Position numbers and translations under genes: made by a program
Shown here: positions 2,955 through 59,115 of the stretch, piece by piece
Numbering within the stretch: the stretch's first letter is position 1
Layout: every line of letters begins with the position of its first letter
Notes under the pieces: generated by a model
What the model was told of the DNA's origin: nothing
Database searches by the model: none
Seen by the model: only the letters and a program-made list of their open reading frames with translations
From: an uncultured Planctomycetota bacterium
Lineage (GTDB): Bacteria; Planctomycetota; Brocadiia; CAIUPP01
DNA length: 64,000 nucleotides
Direction of reading: 5' to 3'
Assembly (NCBI GenBank): GCA_903901045.1
Contig: CAIUPP010000060.1
Span: forward strand, 6,661-70,660

Positions 2955-2981
2955 ACGCCATTCTCCATGAAAGGGTCTTGT

Positions 2982-12900: not shown

Positions 12901-15373
12901 CGTGGCCCTGAAGAACTCCGATTCGCCCCTCACGAAGGTGCCAGCCGCGCGAAGTGCCGACTACGTGGAGAACTTCAACAACGTGTTCCTCTGCGCCAAG
13001 CTTGGACCTTACAGCGTGATTGTTCATACCGGGAATCTGTCGAATTGGAACGACCTCGGTCTCTCCGGTTTCAGCGGTGGAAGCCTGAGCGCTTTCTGGA
13101 CGCAGGCGGCCGGTCCAGCGATTCTCGGCAGGGCGGCCGGGTACCAGAATCCGAATAACGACACTTGGAGCGACTGGAACAAGTGGCCCGTCCATGCCCT
13201 GAGCGGCGTGGCCTCCGGGAACAAGCCATTCTCCTCGTCGCGGCAGAAGAACCCGACTTCAAGCTATACGACCAGTTCTTCCAGCGCGACCGTACAGGTC
13301 GGTGGCGCCTTGGCGGATACTTATGCATCTCCCAACAACGCCCTTGTCGGGAATGTCACCTACAGCCGCACATTTGGATTCACGTCGTCCGGTCTGACCG
13401 TGACCTCCTCCATCACGAGAGACCCCAATCAGACCAATACGGTGACCGAACTGTGGGAGATGATCCCCGTATTTCTGGGAAACACCACAGGAGGCCCGAC
13501 GGTCTCGATTTCGTTCTGGACCGGGTCGCAATGGGTTGCGGCTGGGACATCGGAGACGGCGGGAGTCACCTGCGTGAAGGTCCAACGCGGGAGCGGGGCC
13601 ATCTATATCCACTTCGCCTCCGCACAATCCATCAAGCTATCTCCGAGCGTGTGGTCAGCGGACTTCGTGTTGGCGGTCAGCGAGCGGAATCTCATGATCA
13701 ACCTCCTCCCGGGCGGCACTGGTCCGTTGCCGTCCGTAAGTGTGCAGTACTCGATAGACAACATTTCTCCGGACGGAGGCGATGGAACATGGGGTGTGGA
13801 CGCCGGCGGAAACTGGAGTACGGCAAGCAACTGGGTCAGCAACGTCATTGCCGATGGGGCCGGCCACACCGCGAACTTCACATGGAACATCACGGCTGAC
13901 CGGACGGTAAACCTCGACACCAACCGGACGATTGGCAGCATGAACTTCACCGACAATGGGGGCAACGGCAGCGCCTGGACTCTCGGATCGTCGGGCAATT
14001 ACACGCTCACGATGAGCGGGGGGACTCCGACAATCAGCGTGCGGACGCCGGCCACGATCTCCCTGAAGCTTGCCAACGCATTTGGCGACAATATCGTGAC
14101 GACCGACGGTGGCTACGGTCAGGAACTGACCCTGTCGGGCAACAACGCATTTGCCGGCAGCGTGACACTCAAGTCCGGTGTGCTGAATCTAACGGGTGAT
14201 AACAGCAGCTCGATGGGAAGTATTCTCGCAGTCCCCTACGCCTCTGGCGTGCAGGCGGCTCTAAAGTTAAAGAGTGCGAATTGCCTGCCTACCGGTATAT
14301 TCACGGTGGACGGACGCATCTCCGGCAGCCTCGCGCGGCTGTACGATGACGACAATGCCACAAAGAAGACGTATGCCAACGAGCTGCATTTGGGCGGCCC
14401 GATCAGCTGCTACTTCAGGAACCTCCAGTTTAACGGCAAGGTGTCATTGATGGGGGATACGACGCTGAGCGGCTACACCGATGTCGGGTCTTGCTTGACT
14501 CTGCCGGGCAATATCAGCGGCAGCGCATACAAGCTTGACGTTCAGTCGCCGAATTCCTCCGGCACGTTGGACCTGCATCTTTCCGGAGACAACGCCTTCA
14601 GTGGTGGCACATCGCTTATGCGCTCCAGCCTGTATTTCGGGTCCGATACGGCGTTGGGGACGGGAACTCTTACCATAAACCAGCACCCGTACTACCCTTG
14701 GAGCCCGCACCTATATTCGGAAAACGGCACGCGTTCGCTCTCCAACGCCATTACCTTCAATTGCGGCATACAAGTAGGTAGCTCATCCGACCTGACCTTC
14801 ACGGGCCAGGGCACGCTCAACGACAATGCGACCATGACGGTAGATGGCGGGAGCTACCTGTGTCTGGCCGGCGGGATGAACGACCCCAATACCAAGACGC
14901 TGACCAAGGCCGGCTCCGGCGAACTGGGCGCCGCGGGAACGTACAATCCAGACATAGTCATTGGCGCCGGGACACTGAGCGTAGCCGGGAAGAACATTGG
15001 TGCGCTGACAGTCAACGGAAATATCAGTTTTACCGATAGCAATAGCACCTTTGCCGTCGATCTCAATGGAACCAACGCAGGGACCACCTACGACCAGATG
15101 GCCGTCAATGGCACCGTCACCCTCGGCAGTGGAGGATACTATCCTACACTGAAAGCAGTCCTCAAGACCGCGTCGCTCGGCTCAGGGGACACGCTTGCCA
15201 TCATCGTGAATGATGGGACGGATGCCGTGTCTGGGCACTTTAACGGCCTGACGGAAGGCTCAACCGTGACGCTGGTAGTTGATGTTGCGGGTGTAACATC
15301 GGCGACGGCGAGTATCAGCTACGTCGGCGGGACCGGGAACGACGTGACACTCTACAACTTCGATATTCACTGA
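9920..15373 (+). CDS. giant secreted surface protein (1817 aa). Two autotransporter-associated beta-strand-repeat modules flank a central aromatic-rich putative carbohydrate-active domain.
   Basis: Signal peptide 'MKTRILTGLRTLGAVIALLALATVAQA'. 'GSNAFAGSVTLQSGVVNITGDN'-type beta-helix repeats. AGGAGG RBS at 9907-9912. Confidence 0.85.
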   Translation: MKTRILTGLRTLGAVIALLALATVAQAANGTWNVDANGNWGTTGNWASSVIANGSGYTANFTNNITADRTVNLDSNRTIGSMIFSDNGTNGSAWILSSSGNSTLTMSGGSPTIAVRTPATISLKLANSSGSNIVLTDGGYGQELTLSGSNAFAGSVTLQSGVVNITGDNHGSAGSFYAVPNGAGVQSTLKLQRSDAYCLPTGVFKLDGRTSGSLLRLYDNDNATVKTYPNNLQLGGDIYCYFRNLKFNGTVSLLGNTTLRGCTDAGSCLTLPGVISGSGYKLDVQSPGSSGTVDLHLSGNNTFSGGTSLMRSSLYLGSNTALGTGTLTINQHPVYPFSPCLYSENGARSLSNAMTLNCSVKVDGSSNLTFTGQGTMTDNVTVTVAGGSYLCLAGGMNDPNGKTLTKEDAGELGAKGTFNCDISVNHGSLQSAGTLSVAGSDIGTLTVNGNVNFADDNDGQGTFSVDLNGTSAGTTYDQMVVNGTVTLGNGSYYPHLNAVLKTTSLGLNDTLTIIQNDGTDPIVGRFDAEEGSLVQLNVQCGGGVQYATAKISYVGGTGNDVTLTHFRTSTTQSYLPRRWEYQLDLKNWLATLVTSDFNVMLSNMTYNDNYFANNDMVHAEWLLFDSYGEQVPNHRLLRTPSSAFALSSIDPLDGTIYMPNWDNIERPAATDPRANIWWAGWNYSGNPHKASANATAIKKRALVQVAVDMMEQDEDHFNNVYNRRSDYLGDQLCGWAYTYKKGKDVLDAGTKAAFEAGLKRMFTKIETWGIEGFYADMDARALLGMWYTAEALNDNDLRTRYASFRDNEFIAGEWNSAGYLTHGEAFDAGYQGISFYYLTWLALESNDTTIKNLVAASSKLKAYLTLPENDGAWFFGPSHFNTATDACSANDEWYTYRRDVGTGMITDEAKYLVWTGRARVAAYLHGDLLSVADMKTEINTNTGKLNSYTGGTNDYAFTQAYNGTHTPWHSVYWGTCWMPFAGDDFYPTGYYDSLVALKNSDSPLTKVPAARSADYVENFNNVFLCAKLGPYSVIVHTGNLSNWNDLGLSGFSGGSLSAFWTQAAGPAILGRAAGYQNPNNDTWSDWNKWPVHALSGVASGNKPFSSSRQKNPTSSYTTSSSSATVQVGGALADTYASPNNALVGNVTYSRTFGFTSSGLTVTSSITRDPNQTNTVTELWEMIPVFLGNTTGGPTVSISFWTGSQWVAAGTSETAGVTCVKVQRGSGAIYIHFASAQSIKLSPSVWSADFVLAVSERNLMINLLPGGTGPLPSVSVQYSIDNISPDGGDGTWGVDAGGNWSTASNWVSNVIADGAGHTANFTWNITADRTVNLDTNRTIGSMNFTDNGGNGSAWTLGSSGNYTLTMSGGTPTISVRTPATISLKLANAFGDNIVTTDGGYGQELTLSGNNAFAGSVTLKSGVLNLTGDNSSSMGSILAVPYASGVQAALKLKSANCLPTGIFTVDGRISGSLARLYDDDNATKKTYANELHLGGPISCYFRNLQFNGKVSLMGDTTLSGYTDVGSCLTLPGNISGSAYKLDVQSPNSSGTLDLHLSGDNAFSGGTSLMRSSLYFGSDTALGTGTLTINQHPYYPWSPHLYSENGTRSLSNAITFNCGIQVGSSSDLTFTGQGTLNDNATMTVDGGSYLCLAGGMNDPNTKTLTKAGSGELGAAGTYNPDIVIGAGTLSVAGKNIGALTVNGNISFTDSNSTFAVDLNGTNAGTTYDQMAVNGTVTLGSGGYYPTLKAVLKTASLGSGDTLAIIVNDGTDAVSGHFNGLTEGSTVTLVVDVAGVTSATASISYVGGTGNDVTLYNFDIH
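10008..11618 (+). repeat. intragenic direct repeat, copy 1 (~1.6 kb, N-terminal beta-helix module)
   Basis: About 80 % nucleotide identity to 13785-15355. The protein modules 'NGTWNVDANGNW...ISYVGGTGNDVTLTHF' and 'DGTWGVDAGGNW...ISYVGGTGNDVTLYNF' are collinear. Confidence 0.8.
13785..15355 (+). repeat. intragenic direct repeat, copy 2
   Basis: See copy 1. Confidence 0.8.
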
Positions 15374-15439: not shown

Positions 15440-16597
15440 ATGAAGCATTCGATATTGCGAAAAGCGACATCACACGTGACCAGCAGAGACCGTCTGCTGG
15501 TCACGTGGTCGTTCCGTGAGCCTGACCGCGTGCCCGTCGAGTTGGAGAACACCGAAGAAGTGCGCCGGCATCCGGCGACTCGGCGATTATGTGAATTCGC
15601 AGATCGGGAGGCGGATAACTTCATCTTTGTCGCTGCGGCGGATTGGGGATTCTTCGGGCTTCAGGCGGTGTCGGCGGAAGAAGTCATCGAGGAGGCGCGG
15701 GGACGGTTTGTCCGCAAGCGGCTGACGTACCGGACCTCAGTCGGAGACTTCTGCCGCATTACGCGGCATCCGTGTGATGTGGCTGACCCGGCGGATTTCT
15801 ATTGGGAACAGCGGTTCATTCGGACCCGTGAGGACATGGACCGGTTGGCTAGTGCGCCAAAAAGCGCCCTTCGTGTGCTTCATCGGGAGTATGCAGAGGC
15901 GGATGCCCGGGTTGGCAGTCGGGGAGTCCCAATTAGCGGGCTGGCGCACCCGTTGGGCAGTTTGGTTCGCATGGCCGATACGGAGTCGGTCTACGGTTGG
16001 CTGGCGACGGAGCCGGCGCTGATCCATAGGTTTCTTGATCGCTGCTATGGGCAGCAGGTAGCAGTCATTGAAGAAATGGGACGTGTCGGGATGCGGCCCT
16101 CATTTATCACGTGGGCACATGAAATGCTCATCCCTCCGTGGATGAGTCCGAGGATGTTTGACGAGTTTGTCTTCCCTTACGACAAGCGGCTCAACGATGC
16201 CATTCATCGGATTGGCGGACGCATGCGCATGCATTGCCACGGCTCCTGCATGAACTTTCTGGAGAAGTTTGCGGATATGGGTGTGGATTCCATCGAGCCG
16301 CTGGAACCGTCCCCATACGGCGATGTAGACTTGGCGGACGCCAAGCGGCGGGTGGGGGATCGAATGCTTCTTTCGGGTAACATCCCTTCCCAGAAGTTTC
16401 CATTCATGTCGCGAAAAGAAGTCCAGGAGTGCGTGAAGGAGGCTATCGCGGCGGCGGCAGGCCACGGTGGGTTCACCCTGCGTACCACAGGGGGCGGACT
16501 CGGAGCGGGAGACTTGGCGGAACCGGCGCTGGCAGGCAAAATGATTGAGAACTACGAGGCGTTCATCGATGCCGCGCTGGAATATGGCACCTATTGA
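15440..16597 (+). CDS. URO-D/MtaA-like family protein (possible Zn-dependent methyltransferase-like)
   Basis: N-terminal '...DRVPV' and 'MRMHCHGSCMNFLEKFADMGVDSIEPLEP' with a His-x-Cys motif, as in the MtaA/URO-D family. Confidence 0.7.
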   Translation: MKHSILRKATSHVTSRDRLLVTWSFREPDRVPVELENTEEVRRHPATRRLCEFADREADNFIFVAAADWGFFGLQAVSAEEVIEEARGRFVRKRLTYRTSVGDFCRITRHPCDVADPADFYWEQRFIRTREDMDRLASAPKSALRVLHREYAEADARVGSRGVPISGLAHPLGSLVRMADTESVYGWLATEPALIHRFLDRCYGQQVAVIEEMGRVGMRPSFITWAHEMLIPPWMSPRMFDEFVFPYDKRLNDAIHRIGGRMRMHCHGSCMNFLEKFADMGVDSIEPLEPSPYGDVDLADAKRRVGDRMLLSGNIPSQKFPFMSRKEVQECVKEAIAAAAGHGGFTLRTTGGGLGAGDLAEPALAGKMIENYEAFIDAALEYGTY

Positions 16598-25900: not shown

Positions 25901-26485
25901 GTTCAACCGCCGGTGAGCTTCGCCAAGGAGCCTGGAGACCGATCTTTGATTGAATTGTCCACATTCCAGAGCGGCGACGTGCTTATCGTAGGCCTTCAGA
26001 AGAACAAGCATTGGGACTTGGACAAGGAGTGCAGACTGAAGGTGGCCCTGGGACAGGCGTACACTGTGCGGAATCTGCTGACCGGCGAGAACCTTGGAGA
26101 GCGCGATCACTTGGATCCGACACTCCGTGGTCTTCGTGGTGCCTTTTTTGCGATGTTTCCGAAGCCGGAACTGGATCCCGAGATAAGCCTGGAACCCGTG
26201 AGCGTGAAACCGGGCCAGACGCTGCATGTGATGATTAGGAGTCAGCAGCAAAACGCCTTTCCTGACAGATACTCCGTACGCGTCTATCGCGTGGGCGACG
26301 CAGCCACGGCCGACTCCAACCATGGTGTGTGCAGTTTCTGGACATCTGCGGCGGTCAAGACTGGTCCCGAATGCAGCATGGCGGTGCCGGTGGCCTATAA
26401 CGACGCCCCTGGCCAGTACCGCCTCGTTCTTCGGCGGGACATGACCGGAGTGGAAAAAGAGTTCACGTTTGTGATCGCGCCGTGA
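22910..26485 (+). CDS. large secreted hypothetical protein (1191 aa) with a GH42-type trimerisation / class-I glutamine-amidotransferase-like domain; putative glycosidase
   Basis: Signal peptide 'MRNARVFLTVLCLVFMSAGVPAAEP'. 'QYKVIVLPYNTAMSDALIGKLSEAVENGGTLVG' resembles the beta-galactosidase trimerisation domain. Confidence 0.65.
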   Translation: MRNARVFLTVLCLVFMSAGVPAAEPMGDPSGYLHVLEKGIVTPHRIIAQQYAKGGLKALCIVPFKLGAREVLEVAERFPFEFEVVTAASHDNIDFSTVHHFSETAQGMGGSLKEKREELKLKLKADYDLIAIGNFQWETLPDDVVSLILQKVENGTGLVVTYDPVIPAPGDGLIVSDFANQQDDYILKETPLAHLDAFRTRKAEEIAGLVRCYKLGKGRILFLRIGKPFAYNGGHAFTPMDEPSCFDRWANNYEYYISFFLKSALFAARKEPDVLFDKPEINVSTGAARLPVSIKGDAAFPLEWTLVVRDAEGRQESTASGKLASKEDRVIEYKLPLLTIGTHFLDVTLVHGRQVVNWAGFGFAVAGDSPIRELALARERFAPGEVVTGKLVFTQRPETCVVELVDNWGRIVARQSDADLRKNGESFVLEPGNNPSLRYRVRALAVNPNQKAESTKSFFVSDNGRGRFQSLYWGSYPPCYLGALAARRLYDAGWHVRFGGAGWMSNAYTVTEPACLFEFEQFDADAKVAEMKASVRQKMKETAGAPAFAYFLGDETIIGRTLDSGINSPALAKFPAYVESLYGNIASLNQRWGTKYTTFAEVKPSCLSDAVAAGAPGRWVVFRKFLSEEFFKVHLAARDTIRESDPSAPTGIEGTYQIEPGQWYNPLSLYRDLGLWGPYPDWLCSMVLKSTRDPSKPYGYWFGGYRDRYSGGTYYGRTAGEYVYYPWKHMMDGANSLWWFSEGGIEGMLDLNLDFTPYYKAYKDDVELVTYSLGPALMGARAQLDSVAVIYSPSSVIAAAAVLRNQDVYQTLGVDLVHTMQGCGIQPAIVDEQDAATGKADLRQYKVIVLPYNTAMSDALIGKLSEAVENGGTLVGSMDVGFMNENGDYRTQSHLNEIFGVTRDINPACPSKKTPLKWQGDLWGTNVQLNIPEAVVGESIKLTTGKAVIATGPVFIANRIGKGEAILLNCVLGVGDPRKPDSTAAVTVWKALFRHAGVQPPVSFAKEPGDRSLIELSTFQSGDVLIVGLQKNKHWDLDKECRLKVALGQAYTVRNLLTGENLGERDHLDPTLRGLRGAFFAMFPKPELDPEISLEPVSVKPGQTLHVMIRSQQQNAFPDRYSVRVYRVGDAATADSNHGVCSFWTSAAVKTGPECSMAVPVAYNDAPGQYRLVLRRDMTGVEKEFTFVIAP

Positions 26486-27648
26486 GAGATGGTTCTGTGG
26501 GGAGCCCGTCCGTGCCCTTGACGCCAAAACAGCGCATGCTCAATGCCTACCGCGGCCTTCCTGTGGACGTTCGCCCGGTGGCCCCGGAGTTCTGGTACTA
26601 TTATCCAGCCAAAGTGCTTAGGGTGGATATGATTCAACTCCAACGCGAAGTTCCGTTCTGGTTCGCGTTGAAAACCACCTTCGAGAAATTCGGTTGTGAG
26701 GGATGGGGTACGGTGTGGTGCGGTCGTGAACAACCCAAACCGGCTTCGGAAACACACGAGTTCATTCAGGTCGCAGCGGATTCCTATGAACTGCGCTCGT
26801 GTGAGAGTTTCGCGGGCAGGACTTTCCGTTCCACGAGCCGCTATAGCAAGGCGGAGCCATCTTGGCAGGTCGAGTACCCCGTGAAGGACCCTTTTACGGA
26901 ACTCGACTGCTATTTCGACATGCGGGTTCAGCATGGTTGCACTCTGACTCAGGCAAAGGCCCTTGAGGCTCGCAACGCCGTTGGCGAGGCATTCCTTCTT
27001 GAATGCGTCCTGCCCGGTCAGTTCACGGACTTCCTGGCCTCAGCCATGGGGTTCGAAATGGCAGTCCAATACCTCATGACCGAGGAATCGGCTAAGTTGG
27101 AGAGTTACCAGAAACGCTACCGTGATTACGTATCGGAGACGACCGGTCTCTTGGCGGCCACGTTGCCGTTTGAGTCGTATTTCATGGGCTGCTCCTACTC
27201 CTGCGCGTCGCTTATGGGGCCACGATTGTGGCGGCAATGGGACGTGCCTATTGTGGCCGCCGCTGCGAGCGCGATCCACCGACACGGGAAATTAATGCAC
27301 CTGCACTATCACGGCAAGTCGTTGGAGAATGCTGCTGATCTCGCCAGCACAGGGGTGGATTGCGTTTGCCCATTCGAGCGTCCGCCCGGTGGCGATGTGG
27401 ACGGGCTGGAAGGCTTGCAGAGAACCCGGGCTCTGATTGGGGAAAAGCTCACATTCAACGGGAATGTGCATACGGTGGCGACGCTCATTCGTGGCACGCG
27501 CAATGATGTTCGGCGTGAAGTCGGTCAGATAAAGTCCGCCTTTGCCGATTCCCACCGGCTCATCATCGGTACGGGTGACCAAGTCGGACGCGAGACGCCT
27601 GAGGAGAATCTTCACGTGATGGTTGAGGCGGGCCATGAAGCTTCGTGA
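26482..27648 (+). CDS. URO-D/MtaA-like family protein
   Basis: 'LTPKQRMLNAYRGLPVDVRPVAP' N-terminus plus 'LMHLHYHGKSLENAADLASTGVDCVCPFERPP'. GTGA overlap with the upstream gene. Confidence 0.7.
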   Translation: MRDGSVGSPSVPLTPKQRMLNAYRGLPVDVRPVAPEFWYYYPAKVLRVDMIQLQREVPFWFALKTTFEKFGCEGWGTVWCGREQPKPASETHEFIQVAADSYELRSCESFAGRTFRSTSRYSKAEPSWQVEYPVKDPFTELDCYFDMRVQHGCTLTQAKALEARNAVGEAFLLECVLPGQFTDFLASAMGFEMAVQYLMTEESAKLESYQKRYRDYVSETTGLLAATLPFESYFMGCSYSCASLMGPRLWRQWDVPIVAAAASAIHRHGKLMHLHYHGKSLENAADLASTGVDCVCPFERPPGGDVDGLEGLQRTRALIGEKLTFNGNVHTVATLIRGTRNDVRREVGQIKSAFADSHRLIIGTGDQVGRETPEENLHVMVEAGHEAS

Positions 27649-48329: not shown

Positions 48330-48461
48330 TGAGCGATGCGCAATCAGCTTGACACGCGGGTAGGGGCAAGTCATGCCTTGCCCCTACTAACTCTGGCCCT
48401 ATTGCTCGCAAGCGGAAGACCGAACGTCAAGCTAATTATGTGGCGAGTAATAGCGCTCCTG

Positions 48462-49856
48462 CTACGCCTGCATGGCGGGCGGCGGAAGCTGGCGGTGTAT
48501 TTCCGCGATCCGATAGCCAAATCCGGGGCCGGTCACGGTGGACACATCCAGCACTCCATTGCGGCGCAGGTACAAGCCGGGGTGGACTTTCGACTCGGGC
48601 CCGGAGGCGGCCGGGGCGAACTGCATACCGTTGCTCTCCACCCCCATGATGGTTCCGGCGTGCGCGGCGAGTTGCACGTGCGTGAGCTGCGCCAGCATCG
48701 CGTTGGTCAGGTCCTGCACCATCAGCGTCATGCCGTGCGCCCTCGCCCAGGAGAGGCTCAGCAGCGCGCCGGTCTGGGTCTTGCACGTCTTGAGGGCGAC
48801 CCCCGTCCAGCCCAATTCCCGTCCGATCTTGACGAACTTCCAGTCGTGCGCACTCTCATCCATGAACAGCGGCTTGCGCGCCGACAAGCTGTGCACGTCG
48901 ATGCGGTTCGCTTCCAGGTCGTACGGGAACGGCTGCTCGACGTACAGGATCATGCCGTAGATGCGCGGGTGCTCGGCCATGAGCCGGTCGAGGATGTCGT
49001 TGACGTAAGCGGGTTCCTGAACCATGCAATTGAAGTCCGGCTGAAGCCAGGTAACGTTCTCCTCGACGGCGATGTGTCCCACGCGCACGACGCGCTCGTA
49101 ATCCCAGGCCGCGTCGTTTCCGCGCAATTTGATCTTCAGGCAATTCAGGCCGTCGGTGCGGATCCATTCGCGCAGCACCACCGGGTACCCGTCCTTCGGC
49201 TCCGAGCCGGTGCGCTCACTGTCCTCCAGAAGGTCCTTGCCCCCCACGAGGTGCCAGACCGGCACGCGCTCCTTGCGCGGCAGGGCCAGGAAGTCGGCGG
49301 GGTAGCGCCCGGCGAAGGAGACCGCCGCGCCCGAGGCGGGCGTCAGGTAGTGCGAAAGGTCCTGGTTCATGTACTGTGCCGTATAGGTCTGATAGGTCGG
49401 CACGCCGTGGAGAATGCCGTACGCGTCGTGCAGGGCGAGATCGAAAAGCGAGCAGCAGACCAGCGCCGCCAGATGCGGCATCGGCTCCTTGCGCTTCTGG
49501 TTGAACTCCCGGAGCATTGCGTCGAGATGCTTGTCGTGGAAGGCGTGGCCGATCTCCATCGGATGGCCGGCGTCGGGCAGCTTCGCCCATGCCTTGCCCA
49601 GGAGCAGACAGAACTGCTGCATCGCCTCTTCCCGTTCGGCGTGGGGGAGAGTGCCGGGCCAGGACCATGCGGCGGCCATGGGGGTCTCGCCCCATCCCTC
49701 GGCGGAGCGGCCGCGGCCATCCTCCACGCGCAACTTCACGCGGGCGCAGATCATCGACGAGATAGTCTGCGAGCCGAATTTCAGAGGCAGGCGCATGGGG
49801 TTGGAGATGAAATAGAGCGTTGCGCCCTTGATACGAACGTCGGTGCTTTTGGACAT
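48462..49856 (-). CDS. enolase-superfamily (mandelate racemase/muconate lactonizing enzyme family) sugar-acid dehydratase
   Basis: 464 aa. 'LNCLKIKLRGNDAAWDYERVVRVGHIA', 'FMDESAH' (metal ligand) and 'GVALKTCKTQTG' are MR/MLE-family hallmarks. Confidence 0.75.
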   Translation of the reverse strand: MSKSTDVRIKGATLYFISNPMRLPLKFGSQTISSMICARVKLRVEDGRGRSAEGWGETPMAAAWSWPGTLPHAEREEAMQQFCLLLGKAWAKLPDAGHPMEIGHAFHDKHLDAMLREFNQKRKEPMPHLAALVCCSLFDLALHDAYGILHGVPTYQTYTAQYMNQDLSHYLTPASGAAVSFAGRYPADFLALPRKERVPVWHLVGGKDLLEDSERTGSEPKDGYPVVLREWIRTDGLNCLKIKLRGNDAAWDYERVVRVGHIAVEENVTWLQPDFNCMVQEPAYVNDILDRLMAEHPRIYGMILYVEQPFPYDLEANRIDVHSLSARKPLFMDESAHDWKFVKIGRELGWTGVALKTCKTQTGALLSLSWARAHGMTLMVQDLTNAMLAQLTHVQLAAHAGTIMGVESNGMQFAPAASGPESKVHPGLYLRRNGVLDVSTVTGPGFGYRIAEIHRQLPPPAMQA

Positions 49857-49877
49857 GGTTATGCCTTTCCCTATTCG

Positions 49878-50981
49878 TCAAACATGCAGCAGGTCAGCGA
49901 CCAGGTTGGCCAGGAAGACGCGGTTATCGCAGCAGAAATAGCGCACATCGTCCGAGAGACGATGGAATGACTTGCAGAAACGCAGGTAGTAGGCCGGGCT
50001 TTCCTTGGGCGGCTCCCCCTGCGACCAGTCCCATCCGCCGTCGCTTTGCATGTCGACGATGGCGATCTGGTGCCCCTGGATGAAAGGGCGCTTCTTCTGC
50101 GCCAGGACGTTGTTTGCCGCGCTGAAAGCCTTCTCGAAGACCTGCGGGCTCATGATGGCCGAGCCGATGGAGAGGTAGACGCCGCCGGAGAGCTCCAGCA
50201 TGCCGGCCGCCATGACGCGGGCATCCGTGCCGCTGGTGCGGCCCAGCGCCCCGCCATGGAACATGGGATGGTTGACGAAGATGTCATAGCCGATCCCCAG
50301 GTGAATCGTCATGGGCACTTTGTGGCGGTAAGCACAGGCGAGGACGGAGTGCTGCTTGTGCTCGTGGCGCAGCTCGTGCCGCCCGGCGCGCAACTTGAAC
50401 TGCCGCATCGCCGCCAGCAGGTCCGCCCGAGCGCCGGTGAGCGGGTCCGCCGGTGCGCGGGATATCTGCTCTTCCAGCAGCGCCGGCTCCGGCAGGGTGA
50501 CGCCATCTTCCTCGATGAACCTGCCGATCCCTTCCCCCAGCCCGATCCCTTCCGCTGCGGCGCAGAGCGCGGAAAGGTTGATGGCCCGGCCCGTCTCCTC
50601 CCACGCCCCGAAGCGCCCGACGCGCGCATTGTCGCGCACCGACTCGCTCGAAACGCCCTTGAATGCGAACTCCCAGTCGTGGATCATCCCCGCGCCGTGC
50701 GTCGCCACGTGCGTCACGAAACCCTTCTCGATCAGGGCGTTCACCAACGGCCCTGCGCCGTTCTTGATCAGGTGGGCGCCGTAGGTCAGCACCACGGCGG
50801 CTTTGCGTTTCCTTGCCTGACGGATCCGTTCGGCGAGTTGTGCGATGGGGGATTTCATCGCGCCGGCATCGGGAGGGGGGTCGGTCGGCAGAATTCGCTC
50901 CTCCTCAATCCGGATGAAGCTCTTCCGCTCGGCCAGCGAGAATACGTTCAGTTGCGTCGCATCGATTCGGCTATAGGGCAT
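49878..50981 (-). CDS. deoxyhypusine-synthase-like (DHS-like NAD/FAD-binding fold) protein
   Basis: 'AAVVLTYGAHLIKNGAGPLVNALIEKGFVTHVATHGAGMIHD' resembles the DHS '[38 protein letters not shown]' block. Low-confidence family call. Confidence 0.45.
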   Translation of the reverse strand: MPYSRIDATQLNVFSLAERKSFIRIEEERILPTDPPPDAGAMKSPIAQLAERIRQARKRKAAVVLTYGAHLIKNGAGPLVNALIEKGFVTHVATHGAGMIHDWEFAFKGVSSESVRDNARVGRFGAWEETGRAINLSALCAAAEGIGLGEGIGRFIEEDGVTLPEPALLEEQISRAPADPLTGARADLLAAMRQFKLRAGRHELRHEHKQHSVLACAYRHKVPMTIHLGIGYDIFVNHPMFHGGALGRTSGTDARVMAAGMLELSGGVYLSIGSAIMSPQVFEKAFSAANNVLAQKKRPFIQGHQIAIVDMQSDGGWDWSQGEPPKESPAYYLRFCKSFHRLSDDVRYFCCDNRVFLANLVADLLHV

Positions 50982-52978: not shown

Positions 52979-54262
52979 ATGGATCGCAGGATTGCGGTCG
53001 TGGGGTTGGGTTACGTTGGGCTTCCCCTGACGGTGGCGTTCGGCAAGAAGCGGCCGGTGATCGGCTTCGACATCGGCGTTGCGCGCGTGAAAGAGCTTCA
53101 GCGCGGCTGCGACCGGACCGGCGAGGTTTCCAGCGCCGAACTGGCGGCGGCCCGCGTGGAATACAGCAGCGACCCGGCGGCGCTCGAACGCGCGGACTTC
53201 ATCATCGTCGCGGTCCCGACACCCATTGACGAGGTCAAACGTCCCGACCTTTCCTGCCTGGTGAGCGCAAGCGAGACCATCGGCGCGCATCTGCGCAAAG
53301 GGACGATCGTGGTGTACGAGTCCACCGTCTACCCCGGCGTCACGGAGGAGATTTGCGCGCCGATCCTGGAGCGCGTCTCCGGCCTCACCTGCGGCAAAGA
53401 GTTCAAGGTGGGCTATTCCCCCGAGCGCATCAACCCCGGAGACAGGGAGCACACGCTGGAGCGCGTGGTGAAGGTCGTCTCCGGCATGGATGCGGAGACG
53501 CTGGAAGTCGTGGCGCAGGTCTACGGGAGCGTGGCCGCCGCCGGCGTCTATCGCGCGCCGAGCATTCGGACGGCCGAGGCGGCCAAGGTGATCGAGAACA
53601 CCCAGCGTGACTTGAACATCGCGCTGATGAACGAACTGGCGATGATCTTCCACCGGATGGGCCTCGACACCAGCGAAGTCCTGGCCGCGGCCGGGACCAA
53701 GTGGAATTTCCTCCCCTTCAAGCCCGGCCTGGTGGGGGGGCACTGCATCGGCGTGGACCCGTACTACCTGACCGAAAAAGCGGAGAGCCTCGGCTATCAT
53801 CCGCAGGTGATCCTTGCGGGGCGGCGGATCAACGACGGGATGGGGAAGTACGTGGCGGAGCAGGCCATCAAGCTCCTTGCGCGGCAGGGGGTGAACGCCG
53901 GGCAGGCCCGCGTGGCGGTGCTGGGGATGACTTTCAAGGAGAACGTGCCGGATATCCGCAACTCGCGCGTGGTGGACATCGTGCGCGAACTGGCCGAGTA
54001 CGGCATCACCGCCAGTGTGCACGATCCGCTCGCCGCGCCGGATGATGCCGAGCGGGAATACGGCGTGAAGCTGAAGCCTGCGGAGGAACTGACCGGCTGC
54101 TGCGACGCAGTGATCCTGGCCGTGGCGCACAAGGCGTACCTGGAGAAGGGGGCCGCCTGGATCCGTTCGCTGCTGCGCCAGCCCGACAAAGGCGTGCTGC
54201 TGGACATCAAGTCCGCCCTGCGGCCCGAGGATTTCCGCGAGCAGACCTATTGGCGGCTGTGA
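52979..54262 (+). CDS. nucleotide-sugar dehydrogenase (UDP-GlcNAc/UDP-ManNAc 6-dehydrogenase-like, TviB/WbpA family)
   Basis: 'RRIAVVGLGYVGLPLTVAFG', 'GYSPERINPGD' and 'KPGLVGGHCIGVDPYYL' (catalytic Cys). GAGGAG RBS. Confidence 0.85.
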   Translation: MDRRIAVVGLGYVGLPLTVAFGKKRPVIGFDIGVARVKELQRGCDRTGEVSSAELAAARVEYSSDPAALERADFIIVAVPTPIDEVKRPDLSCLVSASETIGAHLRKGTIVVYESTVYPGVTEEICAPILERVSGLTCGKEFKVGYSPERINPGDREHTLERVVKVVSGMDAETLEVVAQVYGSVAAAGVYRAPSIRTAEAAKVIENTQRDLNIALMNELAMIFHRMGLDTSEVLAAAGTKWNFLPFKPGLVGGHCIGVDPYYLTEKAESLGYHPQVILAGRRINDGMGKYVAEQAIKLLARQGVNAGQARVAVLGMTFKENVPDIRNSRVVDIVRELAEYGITASVHDPLAAPDDAEREYGVKLKPAEELTGCCDAVILAVAHKAYLEKGAAWIRSLLRQPDKGVLLDIKSALRPEDFREQTYWRL

Positions 54263-54331
54263 ACAAAAACGCGCGGGGCGGAAGGCCCTCCTGGCCGCTC
54301 CGCCCCGCGATACGTCCAGCCTCTGCGCTCT

Positions 54332-55348
54332 TTACGGCGCGGCGACGATCTTGATGGCGTCTGCCACGACGCGCGTATCCCACCAGGTGGTCCGGCTGTT
54401 GCCGATCACGACCCGGACTCCCGTGGAGTCGAAGTCGTAAACCCCCAGCGAATTCCACGTCCCGCCGTTGGCGGCCTGGTTCACGCGAACCGTTGTGGAA
54501 ACGCCGCTATGGTAGATCACGTACGGCACGTTTCCGGCCATGCGCTCGCGAAGAATCGGCCACCAGGCGAACACTTCATATCGGCCCGGCGGAAGCGATG
54601 AGCATGTCCATTGCGCACTGGGACCGACGGAGACGGCTGGGCTGGCGGACCGTTCGCCGTTCGACGCGCGGACATCGTCGCGCTCGCTGTTGTTGTCAGC
54701 GCTGCTGTTGGTGCGGCTGTCGGTCCAGCGGTAACTGGCGTTGCGGTCCGTGAGGGGCCAGATGCTCCTGCCCGTGCTGGAAACTCTCCAATTCCCGCTG
54801 AGAACGCGGAAGCTCACCGCACTGCCGGCGCCTGCCTTGTCATCGACAACGACTCCACTGGCGGGAAGCGTGGTCGTCGTGGTGGCGCCCGCAATAGTAG
54901 TGGTGGTCGAGGAACTCGTCGTTGTCGTCGGCGGAAGCGTCGTAGTGGTCGGCGGCAGCGTGGTTGTCGTCGGCGGAAGCGTCGTGGTGGTCGGAGGCAA
55001 GGTGGTTGTTGTCGGCGGAAGCGTCGTGGTAGTCGGAGGCAACGTAGTTGTCGTCGGCCGAAGCGTGGTAGTTGTCGGGGGCAGCGTCGTTGTAGTCGGG
55101 GGGAGTGTCGTTGTGGTCGGACGAAGCGTTGTGGTAGTCGGAGGCAGCGTGGTCGTCGTCGGTGGAAGCGTTGTGGTCGTCGGCGGCAATGTGGTCGTGG
55201 TTGGAGGAAGCGTAGTAGTGGTCGGAGTCGCTGCCGTCACGGCGTCAAGCGGCGCGGCCAGTCCTACAGGTGTGCCGGGGAGAGCCAAGGTCATGAGGAC
55301 GAACGACAGGAAGATGCTCACGAACGCCGTCGACCACCCGTTACGCAT
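54332..55348 (-). CDS. secreted protein: signal peptide, 15x perfect TTTTLPP repeats, and a golvesin-C-terminal-like carbohydrate-binding domain
   Basis: 'MRNGWSTAFVSIFLSFVLMTLALPG' signal peptide. C-terminal 'YEVFAWWPILRERMAGNVPYVIYHSGVSTTVRVNQAANGGTWNSLGVYDF' resembles the golvesin/Xly C-terminal domain. Confidence 0.75.
   Translation of the reverse strand: MRNGWSTAFVSIFLSFVLMTLALPGTPVGLAAPLDAVTAATPTTTTLPPTTTTLPPTTTTLPPTTTTLPPTTTTLRPTTTTLPPTTTTLPPTTTTLRPTTTTLPPTTTTLPPTTTTLPPTTTTLPPTTTTLPPTTTTLPPTTTTSSSTTTTIAGATTTTTLPASGVVVDDKAGAGSAVSFRVLSGNWRVSSTGRSIWPLTDRNASYRWTDSRTNSSADNNSERDDVRASNGERSASPAVSVGPSAQWTCSSLPPGRYEVFAWWPILRERMAGNVPYVIYHSGVSTTVRVNQAANGGTWNSLGVYDFDSTGVRVVIGNSRTTWWDTRVVADAIKIVAAP
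54899..55222 (-). repeat. 21-bp tandem coding repeat (15 units) with synonymous-codon diversification
   Basis: Each unit encodes exactly TTTTLPP (two units have LRP). Thr (ACN), Leu (TTG/CTN) and Pro (CCN) codons vary between units. Confidence 0.85.
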
Positions 55349-55587
55349 GACTCACCTCCAAGCGAAAGACTGCTAAGAACTACGAAATAGGAAATATTAG
55401 CTACATAGTTCAATATACTTGGTCTGCATCTAAAGGTCAATACCCTGTTCCATAAGTACACATAAATTCGTATCACATTATAGCAACGGATGTTACGCCG
55501 TGGATATTTCCCGGAATGGAAAAGAAATGCGCACCTTGGGAAGCGGCGGGTCGTCGGAAAGGAGGATTGCGGGTCGTTTGGGTGGCC

Positions 55588-58500
55588 TTAGGGTGGCCAC
55601 TGCACCTCTAGTTGAGGCCATTGAGTCCGCGGGCAAAGAAGGACAATCACGCGGTCGCCTTGTTCCGCTTGATAGCGCATGGAATGCATGACGACGGCGC
55701 GGTAGATGCTCATAGTCCGCGACACCGGATCGGGAGGGGCGGAGAAGCCGCCGGCCGCGAGCGCGGGGAAGGTGTCGGCGCGCAGTCCGCGGTCGAGTTC
55801 ATGACAGCGGCGCTCGGCATCCACCACCACGCAGACCAGGCGCGCGTTCCCGCGCTGAACGATCGCCACCTGTGCGCGGCCCTTTCCCGCAACGCGTTCC
55901 ACCGCGGCGGCGATCTCGCCGTTGAGTCCTTTGCGTGAGAATTCCATCTTGGACGATTCGGTCGCGGGGCGTGCCGCCATGACGGGGGGCATACTCCCTT
56001 GCGCGCTTGGCTCCGGAGCAAGCTGACTCGGGAGCCCCTCGGCTGGCTCAGGGCAGGGGACCAGCTCCGTCGTCGGTTCAATCCGGCATGCGATGTCGGC
56101 TCTGGTCAGCGTCGGGATGCTGATCTGCAAAACACCTGCCGCGGAGGCGGCGGAAGCGGTGGCGATGGGCACTGCGCCGCTGCTCCAAACATCGTACCAG
56201 CCGACGCTGTAACTGCCGTCGGCAAGTCCGGAGAAGGTCAGGTGCTGACCGCCCATTGTCCCGCTCGTGTTTTGCACCCATGCGAAGGCGCGGCCATCCC
56301 GGGCCATCCCCCAGCCGCGGCAGGAGGAACTGTCCAGCGAGAGAGAAGCCGGGCTGCCGGTGGAGTCCGCAAGGTAATCCAGCCCGGAAATGAAATCCGC
56401 CAGGGATTTCAAGTGGTTGCTCATCTCCGGGGTCAGCATGGGATAGTTCCCGGCGTCGCACCAGAGCAACGGCGTCATCGCCGCGCCCGACGCGACGCCG
56501 GCCCAGAGACCGTTGTGGAGATGCGCCGGCTGCGTTGCGCCGTTGACCACATCGCCGCCAAATTCCGTATGGAACCCCGGCAGGCCGCTTGCTCGCAGGG
56601 TGGTCGTTTGCGAGGCGATGGTCGCCGCAACCGCGACGTTATTGTTCTTCTGCTGATACGTGTCCGCCACCCGCATATCCTGGCCGCTGTTCCATGAGGG
56701 CTGGTCCATCTTGCTCACAGTTATCGGGTATTGGCCGCCGCCGTTGTTCCGGAACGGGTCCAGTTGGCGGAAGCACTCGCGCGCGGAGGCGCACCAAGCC
56801 TCGGACTGCGCGCGGTTCTGCACGTAGCCGGAGGTGCCTTCGAGCTCGCACAGCAGCACCCATCCCGCGATGGCGCGGCTCGACCCCCAGCGCGCATTCA
56901 CGTAGCGGAAGAAGTTCTTCTGGTAGCGCCACTGCGGCGTATCGCTGCCGTACGCGGTCGTCTTGAAAAAATCGCTCGCCGAGCAGATGGATTTGTACGC
57001 GTTGTTCGACCACCATCCCTGGCCCCAGGGGTGGCCGGTGTCGCGAAGCTGGCCGTGCGACCAGATCGTCGGGAGGAGGCTGATTCCCGCCGCCTCGGCG
57101 CGCGACACGACGCCGTCGATGTACGCGCATGCGGCCTGATTATAGTTGCCGATGCCCTGTTCCGTGTTCTCGATGGGGGCGCGCTCGGCCGGGGAGGGAT
57201 CCTCCGGCGACGCCCAGGAAGGCTGATCCCAGGGAGCCGCAAGCCAGAAGCTCAGCAGGTTCTCCCGCGACGCGGTCATGTTCGCGAAGGCCGGCTGCTC
57301 GACATCCGCCTGCCAGCCGGTGTTGTGGCCGACGGCGAAGAAGGACTGCCCGCTCGCGAAGCGCAGGTTGCGGCCCGAAATGCGCGCCCAACCCGGGCTG
57401 CTCGATGCCGCGCACGTGAAGGCCCCAGCGCTCCATGTCGCCGCGCCACTCTTGTCCCGGGCGCGGACGCTGAACGTCCAGTCGCCCACCTCGCCGGGCG
57501 CGAAGCGGACCAGCCAGTGCTGCCCGTCGTAGAACCCGTTGATGCTCCAGACCGACTCGCCGGGGCTCGTGAAGGTTGCCGACAAGTCCAGGCCATCCGC
57601 GGCGGGGTCCGGCTCGTAGAACTTCGTGGCGGCGACGTTGGAGAGCGTGACAAGCAGCTCCAGCGTGGCGTATTTCGGAACCGCGGCGCCCGGCGGCTCG
57701 GAGATCGCGACATTCGCTATGGCGAGCGTGGCGGGGGGCTGGGTTGTGGTCGTGGTTGACGTGGTCGTGGTGGTCGTCGTTGTAGACGTAGTGCTGCTGG
57801 TCGTTGTCGTCGTGGAGGTGGTCGGCGGCACAGTCGTCGTAATGGTGCTGGTCGTAGTGGTTGTGGTGGTAGAGGACGACGAGGTGGTTGTAGAGGTCGT
57901 AGATGTGGTTGAGGTCGTTGGCGGCAGCGTCGTGCTTGTGGTGGTCGTACTTGTCGTGTCAGACGTTGTCGTCGTAGTCGTAGTCGAGGAGGAAGAGGTT
58001 GTCGTGGTCGTCGATTCTGAGGAAGTCGTGCTGCTTGTCGTCGTCGTGGTTGTGGTTGTTGTCGTGGTTGTTGTTGACTCCGTTGTGGTTGTCGTGGAGG
58101 TGGTCGGAGCCAGCGTCGTCGTAGTCGTGCTTGTCGTCGAAGTGGTGGTCGTAGTGGTGGACGGCAGGGTCGTGGTTGTGGTGGTCGTTGTCGTGGTCGG
58201 CGGCAGAGTGGTTGTGGTCGTGGTCGACGTGGTCGTCGTGCTGGTCGTAGTCGTGGTGGAAGTCGTTGTTGTGGTCGGCGGTTCTTTCGTGATGGTGACT
58301 TCATATCCGGCCGACAGCGCGGATCTCCCTTTGCCGTATTCCGCAACGATCATGCAGCGCTGGTCTGAGGGGACGGACTTCGCCGCGAGCCGCCCGCTTT
58401 TGTCCATCCGGGCGAATGAGGAGAACGCCCTCCATCGGGCCTCGCCCGTGACCTCCGCCGTCGTTCCGACGTCGTACTGCGCGATGCAGTGGTATTGCGC

Positions 58501-58935
58501 CGAGTTCTGCTGCTGGAGTTCCCCGGGGCCGGTCACGCTGATGGAGGCCGGCGTCCCGATGGCAAAGGCATGATCGCTGAAATCCTCCACGGCGTCATCC
58601 GGCGTGCTCACGCGAATCCGGTAGCCGACCCCTTTCGCGTAGGCCGCTTGCCCCGGCGAGCTCCATTTCCCAACCTCCCAGAGCCAGTGGTTCCTGCCCT
58701 TGACGATGGCGAGGTCCCAATGGTTTCCCCTGGAATCGTAGAGCCCGACCTTCACCTTGTCATTGTTCGGCAGGTTGTTCGCCCACTGGACGTCGTATTT
58801 CTGCCCCCATTCGACGGTCAGGCCCGGTTGGGAGGGTTGCACCACCTGCAGGGCGCGGGAAAGATCGGGAGCGGCGATGGCAGCGTTGCCCGCTGAGAGG
58901 AGGAGAAGAAGGAAGGCTGCGGCGATGCGGAACAT
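55588..58935 (-). CDS. secreted multidomain protein: Kre9/KNH-like N-terminal domain pair, ~230-aa Thr/Ser-rich linker, TIM-barrel glycoside-hydrolase-like domain (DUF4038/GH5-like). The C-terminal ~120 aa may be a separate ORF.
   Basis: Signal peptide 'MFRIAAAFLLLLLSAGNAAIAAPD'. 'LRFASGQSFFAVGHNTGW...AACAYIDGVVSRAEAAGISLLPTIWSHG' is GH-like. The tail 'MEFSRKGLNGEIAAAVERVAG...' (55588-55947) has a different composition. Confidence 0.65.
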   Translation of the reverse strand: MFRIAAAFLLLLLSAGNAAIAAPDLSRALQVVQPSQPGLTVEWGQKYDVQWANNLPNNDKVKVGLYDSRGNHWDLAIVKGRNHWLWEVGKWSSPGQAAYAKGVGYRIRVSTPDDAVEDFSDHAFAIGTPASISVTGPGELQQQNSAQYHCIAQYDVGTTAEVTGEARWRAFSSFARMDKSGRLAAKSVPSDQRCMIVAEYGKGRSALSAGYEVTITKEPPTTTTTSTTTTTSTTTTSTTTTTTLPPTTTTTTTTTTLPSTTTTTTSTTSTTTTTLAPTTSTTTTTESTTTTTTTTTTTTTSSTTSSESTTTTTSSSSTTTTTTTSDTTSTTTTSTTLPPTTSTTSTTSTTTSSSSTTTTTTTSTITTTVPPTTSTTTTTSSTTSTTTTTTTTSTTTTTQPPATLAIANVAISEPPGAAVPKYATLELLVTLSNVAATKFYEPDPAADGLDLSATFTSPGESVWSINGFYDGQHWLVRFAPGEVGDWTFSVRARDKSGAATWSAGAFTCAASSSPGWARISGRNLRFASGQSFFAVGHNTGWQADVEQPAFANMTASRENLLSFWLAAPWDQPSWASPEDPSPAERAPIENTEQGIGNYNQAACAYIDGVVSRAEAAGISLLPTIWSHGQLRDTGHPWGQGWWSNNAYKSICSASDFFKTTAYGSDTPQWRYQKNFFRYVNARWGSSRAIAGWVLLCELEGTSGYVQNRAQSEAWCASARECFRQLDPFRNNGGGQYPITVSKMDQPSWNSGQDMRVADTYQQKNNNVAVAATIASQTTTLRASGLPGFHTEFGGDVVNGATQPAHLHNGLWAGVASGAAMTPLLWCDAGNYPMLTPEMSNHLKSLADFISGLDYLADSTGSPASLSLDSSSCRGWGMARDGRAFAWVQNTSGTMGGQHLTFSGLADGSYSVGWYDVWSSGAVPIATASAASAAGVLQISIPTLTRADIACRIEPTTELVPCPEPAEGLPSQLAPEPSAQGSMPPVMAARPATESSKMEFSRKGLNGEIAAAVERVAGKGRAQVAIVQRGNARLVCVVVDAERRCHELDRGLRADTFPALAAGGFSAPPDPVSRTMSIYRAVVMHSMRYQAEQGDRVIVLLCPRTQWPQLEVQWPP
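57725..58290 (-). repeat. low-complexity Thr/Ser-rich linker coding region (ACN/TCN codon runs)
   Basis: The plus strand shows a (GTCGTGGTNGTN)n-like periodicity. The protein has ~230 aa of T/S with sparse LPP/E/D. Confidence 0.8.
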
Positions 58936-59115
58936 CTCAGTCCCTGCCTTGGTCACAACGAAGATCGGTCGGCGCGTCGCTCGATAGCCTAGCAGAACGG
59001 CGGGCAAAGTCAACGCGACAGGGCGAAAAAGAAGCAACGCAAGAGAAGAGATGAAACATCCCTCCGTCTTGCGTTGCCCTTGCATCGTGCGAAACGAAAT
59101 CAGTGTGCGTTCGGG

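Follow-up and report, generated by a model that had tools for sequence, protein, structure and literature searches.

How does a bacterial gene come to encode a long run of heptapeptides that are nearly identical as protein and nearly randomised as DNA, and what would such a run be for? The question is raised by a gene on the minus strand of a 64,000-nucleotide (nt) stretch of an uncultured Planctomycetota bacterium (contig CAIUPP010000060.1, positions 6,661 to 70,660; hereafter, the window), whose 338-aa exported product carries an array of 14 TTTTLPP-type heptads. Comparison of the repeat units with one another demonstrates protein-level purifying selection on the heptad peptide, and the silent sites of the array are near saturation, yet no more diverse than chance. 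We consider it likely that this pattern reflects passive silent drift together with peptide-level selection on a Thr/Pro spacer that precedes a putative carbohydrate-binding domain.

A heptad array between a signal sequence and a beta-sandwich

The main elements of the gene are the following:

54332..55348, minus strand: gene for the 338-aa exported protein, stop codon included (list of open reading frames, ORFs, and translation; exact protein in two public assemblies; syntenic ortholog at a metagenomic locus, L015).
55256..55348, minus strand: predicted N-terminal signal peptide or possible signal anchor, aa 1 to ~31, with hydrophobic core STAFVSIFLSFVLMTLAL (sequence).
54929..55222, minus strand, 294 nt: array of 14 heptads, aa 43-140, with 12 TTTTLPP and 2 TTTTLRP units (unit-by-unit codon table, Tandem Repeats Finder).
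55097..55222, minus strand: units 1-6, the older stretch of the array, in which identity between 42-nt blocks is 71-79%, as expected at synonymous saturation (block identity matrices).
54929..55054, minus strand: units 9-14, which form three 42-nt two-heptad blocks of more recent origin (88-90% identity), with the longest exact repeat of the array (20 nt).
54857..54928, minus strand: degenerate linker tail, aa 141-164, TTTTSSS, TTTTIAG and ATTTTTLPAS (translation).
54335..54856, minus strand: predicted C-terminal beta-sandwich, Golvesin_C/CBM6-CBM35-like (CBM, carbohydrate-binding module), aa 165-338 (Pfam, PDB match, AlphaFold2, Foldseek).
54626..54715, minus strand: charged insert loop, ~aa 212-241, SRTNSSADNNSERDDVRASNGERSASP, of low confidence in the domain model (predicted local distance difference test, pLDDT, 52-61, model residues 51-80).

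The protein thus consists of a signal peptide, a Thr/Pro linker of ~120 aa and a C-terminal beta-sandwich of predicted Golvesin_C/CBM6-35-like type. Its hydrophobic signal sequence, which opens with MRNGWSTAFVSIFLSFVLMTLALPG..., is a helix at residues 6-21 in a single-sequence model and is conserved in the L015 ortholog. A preliminary description of this DNA had counted fifteen perfect TTTTLPP repeats at 54899-55222. The repeat does lie there, on the minus strand, but has 14 units, 12 of them perfect; the two TTTTLRP units also reported are units 5 and 8, and positions 54899..54928 hold the degenerate TTTTSSS unit and the start of TTTTIAG, not regular heptads. Over aa 43-140 the array is 57% Thr, 27% Pro and 14% Leu. 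Tandem Repeats Finder detects a 21-nt period with 15.5 copies and 73% match, and a 42-nt period that scores better (79%). In the full-length, single-sequence AlphaFold2 (AF2) model, aa 22-143 are devoid of secondary structure (pLDDT 39-47), the whole model being of low confidence (mean 39.2).

Silent-site diversity and selection on the peptide

The wide third-position variation first noticed in the Thr, Leu and Pro codons is borne out by the codon table: Thr is encoded by ACC, ACG, ACA and ACT, Leu by CTT, CTG, CTC and TTG, and Pro by CCG, CCT, CCC and CCA. The expectation for random synonymous encoding was obtained from 5000 simulations using the codon usage of 26 other ORFs of the window. 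Mean pairwise identity among the 21-mer units is 77.2%, compared with 75.9±1.2% for random encoding, and between-unit codon identity is 0.377 compared with 0.325±0.030 (P=0.054), which is why we regard the silent sites as close to saturation and not beyond it. The DNA identity can therefore be called eroded, as had been proposed, but unevenly so, given the 42-nt period, the high identity of units 9-14 and the retention of particular codons at the fourth Thr (T4) and the last Pro (P7) of the heptad.

The peptide shows the opposite behaviour. Between units, the proportion of synonymous differences (pS) is 0.61 and that of nonsynonymous differences (pN) 0.038 (pN/pS 0.06); in the TTTT block, pN=0 at pS=0.68, and the sole replacements among the 14 units are the two Arg units. 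In the three young 42-nt blocks, 7/7 variable sites are synonymous (P=4e-4 under neutrality, where a random mutation is silent in about one case in three). It is because pN is far below pS and every change in the young blocks is synonymous that selection at the protein level can be considered demonstrated. The array offers a clean and quantifiable case of selection on a low-complexity peptide repeat, not on its DNA, with a pN/pS of 0 on TTTT at saturated silent sites.

The arrangement of the codons also records how the array grew. It has a 42-nt, two-heptad super-period: codon identity is higher at lag 2 (0.48) than at lag 1 (0.29; permutation P=0.0016), adjacent units being the least alike (permutation P=0.013). 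The L015 ortholog has the same two-unit alternation, and the odd/even codon parity is also seen when units of the window are compared with those of L015; the 42-nt double unit is therefore ancestral. Targeted hypermutation by a diversity-generating retroelement was considered as a source of the variation and rejected, the changes being at third positions, involving all four bases and not being adenine-specific. Neither does the array resemble a hypervariable tandem repeat of the variable-number or contingency type: its units are not near-identical (77.2% identity, longest exact repeat 20 nt), and five public lake-metagenome contigs that span it are 100% identical over 1301 nt, so that copy number does not vary among these close genomes, the independence of the samples not being established. 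Copy number does differ from that of the L015 ortholog, at a synonymous divergence (dS) of ~0.8.

A whole-protein homolog search was swamped by the repeat, 113/113 hits being unrelated proteins that share TTTT-x-P-P arrays, and gave no ortholog. When the C-terminal domain was used in a word-indexed search, nothing but pieces of the 338-aa protein came back, and neither P0114 nor P0238 had an exact-sequence record. In a scan of genome contigs, the Golvesin_C domains retrieved were all distant (37-47% identity) and belonged to large multidomain proteins that lack T-rich linkers. An exhaustive comparison based on the C-terminal domain, in which no profile was used, yielded 3371 representative proteins at E<=1e-3, with one close relative, P0238 (86% over 69 aa). 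Its locus, recovered by a metagenome scan, is L015, the sole ortholog found, which encodes 319 aa in a syntenic setting (a DUF5060 protein upstream; UDP-glucose dehydrogenase, alanine dehydrogenase and an AsnC-type regulator downstream). The two species differ by a dS of 0.43-0.97 and a nonsynonymous divergence (dN) of 0.07-0.19, the C-terminal domain having dN 0.19 and dS 0.83.

The linker of L015 (5746-5976) reads TTTTLPA, TTTTVAP, TTTTRPP, TTTTLAS, TTTTLPP, TTTTLAP, TTTTLPP and TTTTLLP, followed by degenerate units that can be aligned with the tail of the window linker (TTTTTSS TTTTSIA DATTTTTLPPAG). Every unit of both proteins keeps the heptad register and an unchanged TTTT block. By contrast, non-LPP residues make up 9/24 in L015 and 2/42 in the window (Fisher P=0.001), the last three positions of the L015 heptads have pN=0.34, and the regular units number 8 in L015 and 14 in the window. 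A one-to-one orthology of units could not be established: an offset of -5 gave 21/32 identical codons, marginal after multiple offsets and the parity effect. Selection thus acts on TTTT and on the register in both species, and on the exact LPP in the window lineage only, so that the purifying selection on the peptide first proposed for the whole heptad holds for TTTT in both species and for LPP in one. Variable, non-conserved repeats in orthologs had been named beforehand as the result that would indicate low-complexity drift, and the comparison gave a divided answer, with an invariant TTTT and register in L015 on one side and variable last residues and a different unit number on the other.

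The variable half of that answer is what would be expected if only Thr/Pro composition and length mattered, the perfect LPP being a transient product of recent duplication or homogenisation. The irregular T-rich linker of a neighbouring gene in the same genome, the youth of units 9-14 and the general tendency of cellulase linkers to keep composition and not sequence (PMC3490864) point the same way. We nevertheless judge this explanation improbable. Units 1-6 stand at synonymous saturation and yet are all TTTTLPP save one LRP; the TTTT block shows no nonsynonymous difference in either species (pN=0) against a pS of 0.56-0.68, compared with a dN of 0.19 in the remainder of the protein; and the same heptad of four Thr, a hydrophobic residue and two Pro recurs in unrelated proteins.

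Drift at silent positions under peptide selection would account for these data as follows. The array would have grown by tandem duplication, most recently of the 42-nt two-heptad block. After duplication, purifying selection would have acted at the protein level, absolute on TTTT in both known species, strong on L-P-P in the window lineage and weaker in the sister lineage, while silent positions drifted until the older units reached saturation. The nucleotide diversity would then be a passive by-product of age and peptide selection. As a side effect, the array would now be a poor substrate for slippage or homologous recombination, because exact repeats within it no longer exceed 20 nt. The stabilisation of the array by eroded identity, advanced in the preliminary description, is hence a plausible consequence, but selection for stabilisation is not shown, because diversity is not above random, identical neighbouring Thr codons are not avoided and the array has expanded by 42-nt blocks. 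Other arrays behave similarly: in five unrelated TTTT-x-x-x arrays for which DNA was retrieved, the Thr-codon identity observed and that expected by chance are 0.50/0.51, 0.53/0.52, 0.51/0.45, 0.39/0.39 and 0.29/0.31, respectively. These five arrays are at chance codon identity, and amino-acid-perfect, codon-random heptads therefore seem to be the norm for this type of linker.

Several points weigh against so simple an account. Pure drift does not predict that T4 is ACG in 11/14 window units and 9/11 ortholog units, that P7 is CCG in 13/14 window units or that the Leu codon (L5) is CTT in 7/14 units, against a background of 12%. At the first three Thr positions (T1-T3), the four Thr codons are used almost evenly, the rare ACA and ACT reaching 17/42 against a background of 18.8% (P=9e-4), a possible sign of some selection on the codons used. 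Because the comparator arrays were taken from short-read assemblies, in which DNA-identical arrays would fail to assemble, the comparison is biased towards diversified ones. The five identical contigs may derive from overlapping samples of one population. Two species do not set the polarity of the change, and the window lineage may either have retained LPP or have become homogenised. The full-length model, of low confidence throughout, is no more than consistent with disorder of the linker, and no anchor was found in the protein by sequence inspection.

The excess of rare Thr codons would fit with selection on codon diversity itself, whether to prevent slipped-strand or recombinational contraction or to spread the 56 Thr codons over several tRNA-Thr species. 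ACA and ACT account for 19/56 Thr codons of the whole array (P=0.005 against the same background), and the T-rich linker of the neighbouring gene is likewise enriched in them (36/127, P=0.006); the dissimilarity of adjacent units, the shortness of the longest exact repeat and the identity of the array in five contigs can be read in the same sense. However, both unit and codon identity lie slightly above random encoding, identical Thr codons stand side by side about as often as expected (9 vs 11.4, P=0.25), and the near constancy of the T4 and P7 codons is the opposite of diversification. In addition, the low lag-1 identity is accounted for by the alternation of the two halves of the duplicated 42-nt block, the three young blocks persist at 88-90% identity, and unrelated arrays lie exactly at the chance expectation. 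Selection for codon diversity therefore has, in our view, only a small chance of being the explanation.

The linker and its domain among known systems

Heptads of the form TTTT-(L/V/I)-(P/A)-P are found as arrays in many unrelated exported proteins (P0001-P0113; loci L023-L027), including plastocyanin-like, fasciclin, beta-helix and TSP_C proteins, and the source labels of these proteins comprise Acidimicrobiia, Binatia and one Altiarchaeales archaeon. Weaker T-rich matches come from animals (Chironomus, Ostrea and Sebastes).

Such recurrence across distant taxa (113 repeat-driven matches) raises the idea that the heptad is a specific functional unit, either a recognition site for an O-glycosyltransferase or a rigid structural repeat, with exact sequence and register under selection. 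The strict seven-residue register in both species agrees with it, and Thr blocks are the usual acceptors of O-glycans. The Ser and Thr residues of cellulase linkers are also regarded as potential O-glycan sites (PMC3490864). In the opposite sense, no glycosyltransferase gene occurs in the 64-kb window, positions 5-7 of the ortholog heptads accept A, S, V, R and L, and such a sequon has no experimental or literature support, full-text literature searches for the heptad motif strings having found nothing relevant. A specific unit of this kind is accordingly very unlikely in our judgement, the least probable of the explanations weighed here. A broader version would hold that TTTT-hydrophobic-Pro-Pro arrays are a distinct, convergent linker module of exported prokaryotic proteins with unrelated domains, seen here in a bacterium of the Planctomycetes-Verrucomicrobia-Chlamydiae (PVC) superphylum and elsewhere in proteins with the source labels Acidimicrobiia, Binatia or Altiarchaeales. 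In it, the register would be selected heptad by heptad (for example, as the sequon of a processive O-glycosyltransferase or as a rigid repeat), and codon scrambling together with the retention of T4=ACG and P7=CCG would keep the arrays translatable and genetically stable. We give this version little credence. If the heptad were indeed a glycosylation or structural unit across phyla, it would point to an undescribed class of bacterial glycoprotein linkers.

Peptide selection on a spacer is compatible with what is known of bacterial CBM linkers, which are typically Pro/Thr-rich and whose high proline content has been linked to extended conformations (PMC3490864). The window linker has the corresponding Thr/Pro-dominated composition and separates the signal peptide (aa 1 to ~31) from the domain (aa 165-338); array and degenerate tail together would form an extended, non-globular spacer of ~120 residues between a Sec signal peptide and the beta-sandwich. 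With PT-box linkers, such as those of GH6-CBM2 cellulases (GH, glycoside hydrolase), it has in common the dominance of Thr and Pro, a presumably non-globular nature, the junction to a CBM, export and the presence of Ser/Thr as potential O-glycan sites (PMC3490864). PT-box cellulase linkers, however, average ~35 residues and have low sequence conservation (PMC3490864), whereas a strict heptad is repeated 14 times here within ~120 residues. Moreover, no catalytic domain is present, the linker joining the signal peptide to a lone CBM, and the host is probably a diderm of the PVC type, outside the actinobacteria and firmicutes.

The Pro/Thr/Ser repeats of eukaryotic mucins are similar in being secreted, Thr/Pro-rich and arranged in tandem, with copy numbers that change between related lineages. 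The DNA of mucin repeats usually remains almost the same from unit to unit, and their copy number is usually polymorphic within populations, whereas the window array is bacterial, stands at synonymous saturation, has the same count in five contigs and is only putatively glycosylated.

The C-terminal domain had been described as golvesin-like, and the profile searches agree. Its match to Pfam PF25275 (Golvesin_C) reaches 69.1 bits against a cut-off of 31.6 (E=5e-19; aa 233-335, profile positions 31-131 of 132). In the PDB, it matches the C-terminal module of 6F2P, a Paenibacillus xanthan lyase (residues 952-1040, E=3e-11). An AF2 model of the domain alone, built on a 36-sequence alignment, has 12 strands with a pLDDT of 87.1 and a predicted template modelling (TM) score of 0.81, and its best Foldseek match in the PDB is again 6F2P (E=5e-9, TM 0.65 on the query), followed by MiXBM, CBM35 and CBM6 structures (E 2e-4 to 5e-3). 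By profile and model, the domain can thus be assigned to the Golvesin_C/CBM6-CBM35-like family and fold. Its 174 residues match the same family as 6F2P (PF25275; IPR033803, CBM6-CBM35-CBM36_like_2), which is the structure closest to the modelled fold, but at only 28% identity and with an additional charged insert loop of ~30 residues in the window domain. This loop, absent from most family members, is longer and Asp-rich in the L015 ortholog (~6200-6330, DDRNDNDRDADDDDGDDDDSGQRNS). We take the 6F2P module to be the xanthan-binding CBM84. Support for this assignment is indirect, PMC11002231 citing Jensen 2019 for CBM84.

Two IPR033803 members, Cbeg4 and Cbeg5 of commensal Bacteroides, have been shown experimentally to be lectins that bind defined glycans (PMC9166713). 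They resemble the window protein in having a signal peptide, a non-catalytic spacer, one IPR033803-type CBM and no enzyme domain, but their spacer is a folded Fn3 domain and not a Thr/Pro repeat, and they belong to a different phylum from the window host (PMC9166713). By analogy with these lectins (PMC9166713) and with xanthan-binding modules, the C-terminal domain probably binds carbohydrate.

Whether it does so away from the cell is less evident. The preliminary description had the linker presenting the domain in this way, which the protein itself does not support: sequence inspection found no lipobox Cys, C-terminal sorting signal or transmembrane tail, an NCBIfam search found no sorting-domain model, and the protein terminates with the CBM itself (...IKIVAAP). 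Because its N-terminal region lacks Cys, it is predicted not to be a lipoprotein; attachment through a signal anchor left uncleaved at the N-terminus is possible. O-glycosylation of the linker, also put forward in the preliminary description, is likewise conjectural. Because it has no catalytic domain, the 338-aa protein may act as a lectin-like partner of the exported glycoside-hydrolase-like enzyme encoded next to it. Taken as a whole, it is an ordinary linker plus CBM protein in a polysaccharide-utilisation neighbourhood, combining a known class of PT-type tandem linkers with a known CBM family, and its residual curiosities are the strict heptad common to several phyla and the retained T4 and P7 codons.

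Reading frame, expression signals and neighbouring genes

Three features concern the expression and the reading frame of the gene:

55412..55440, minus strand: promoter-like site, TTGACC-17-TATATT, 10/12 (consensus match only, in the AT-rich intergenic region upstream of the 338-aa gene).
55355..55359, minus strand: Shine-Dalgarno sequence GGAGG, 6 nt before the ATG at 55348, the minus strand reading ...GGAGGTGAGTCATG (sequence inspection).
54741..55376, plus strand: antisense shadow ORF of 211 aa with a VVVVGGS repeat (ORF list), judged not to be a gene.

The promoter-like site was the only one in a consensus scan that expected 0.4 sites, and the GC content falls to 0.44 across 55300-55499. 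The interval scanned for terminators, 54150..55700, contained no terminator-like site. The antisense VVVVGGS repeat is the reverse complement of the heptads, one base out of register, and is just as regular, because the wobble positions of the two frames coincide. We rejected it as a true gene on three grounds: the Shine-Dalgarno sequence, signal peptide, array and Pfam domain are all in the sense frame; a switch between TTG and CTN codons leaves Leu unchanged in the sense frame but yields S, K or N in the antisense one; and the non-VVVV residues are not conserved in L015.

In public gene calls, a 204-aa antisense ORF was nonetheless preferred in L003-L006 (L003 5166-5780, L004 and L005 3179-3793, L006 1-522), leaving the true gene as a remnant of 69 or 80 aa. 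The 90% cluster representative of the 338-aa protein is a 161-aa fragment, so that the full architecture is hidden in protein databases. The real protein is thus present as stubs of 69-161 aa in several public assemblies, and the signal peptide-linker-CBM architecture is under-represented in databases because gene callers chose the antisense shadow ORF. Two public contigs have one end at, or immediately before, the array's 5' boundary (the start of L006 corresponds to window position 55283 and that of L007 to 55221), which suggests that short-read assemblers sometimes break there.

Two features of the gene next to it deserve mention:

55588..59085, minus strand: upstream neighbour, a large exported DUF5060-type putative glycoside hydrolase in an ORF of 1165 aa (Pfam DUF5060; syntenic in the ortholog).
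~57733..58287, minus strand: irregular Thr/Ser-rich linker of ~185 aa in that neighbour, with scattered TTLPP and TTVPP motifs (T-rich scan).

The PDB matches of this neighbour are 9GMJ, a 'DUF5060 domain-containing protein' (E=5e-16), and 4N0R, a putative glycoside hydrolase; its real start is probably an internal Met before FRIAAAFLLLLLSAGNAAIAAP. It adjoins the lectin-like gene in both species. Other glycan-related genes of the 64-kb window encode GH4, DUF4838, GH42M, GHL6/fucosidase and Laminin_G_3 proteins, and the window as a whole appears, from its gene content, to be a glycan-utilisation region. It also encodes a DUF1559 protein and AcrB/OEP genes, and the best named match of its alanine dehydrogenase is from a Lentisphaerae metagenome-assembled genome (76%); the gene content points to a diderm, Lentisphaerae-like PVC bacterium as the host.

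Some observations on the rest of the window can be added. Pfam gave no match at E<=1e-5 for several large ORFs, of 1817, 998, 403 and 359 aa (regions 9920..15373 on the plus strand, and 4110..7106 and 1743..4061 on the minus strand); the 1817-aa ORF lies after a DUF1559/prepilin-type protein typical of PVC bacteria. An ORF of 544 aa (48336..49970, plus strand; GC content at first codon positions 0.84) looks like the shadow of an enolase-superfamily gene (MR_MLE_C) at 48462..49856 on the minus strand and would be another long spurious ORF in a sequence of 61% GC. Finally, two paralogs of the uroporphyrinogen decarboxylase-like (URO-D) family (15440..16597 and 26482..27648, both on the plus strand) lie amid the GH4, DUF4838, GH42M and Laminin_G_3 genes, an unusual pairing.

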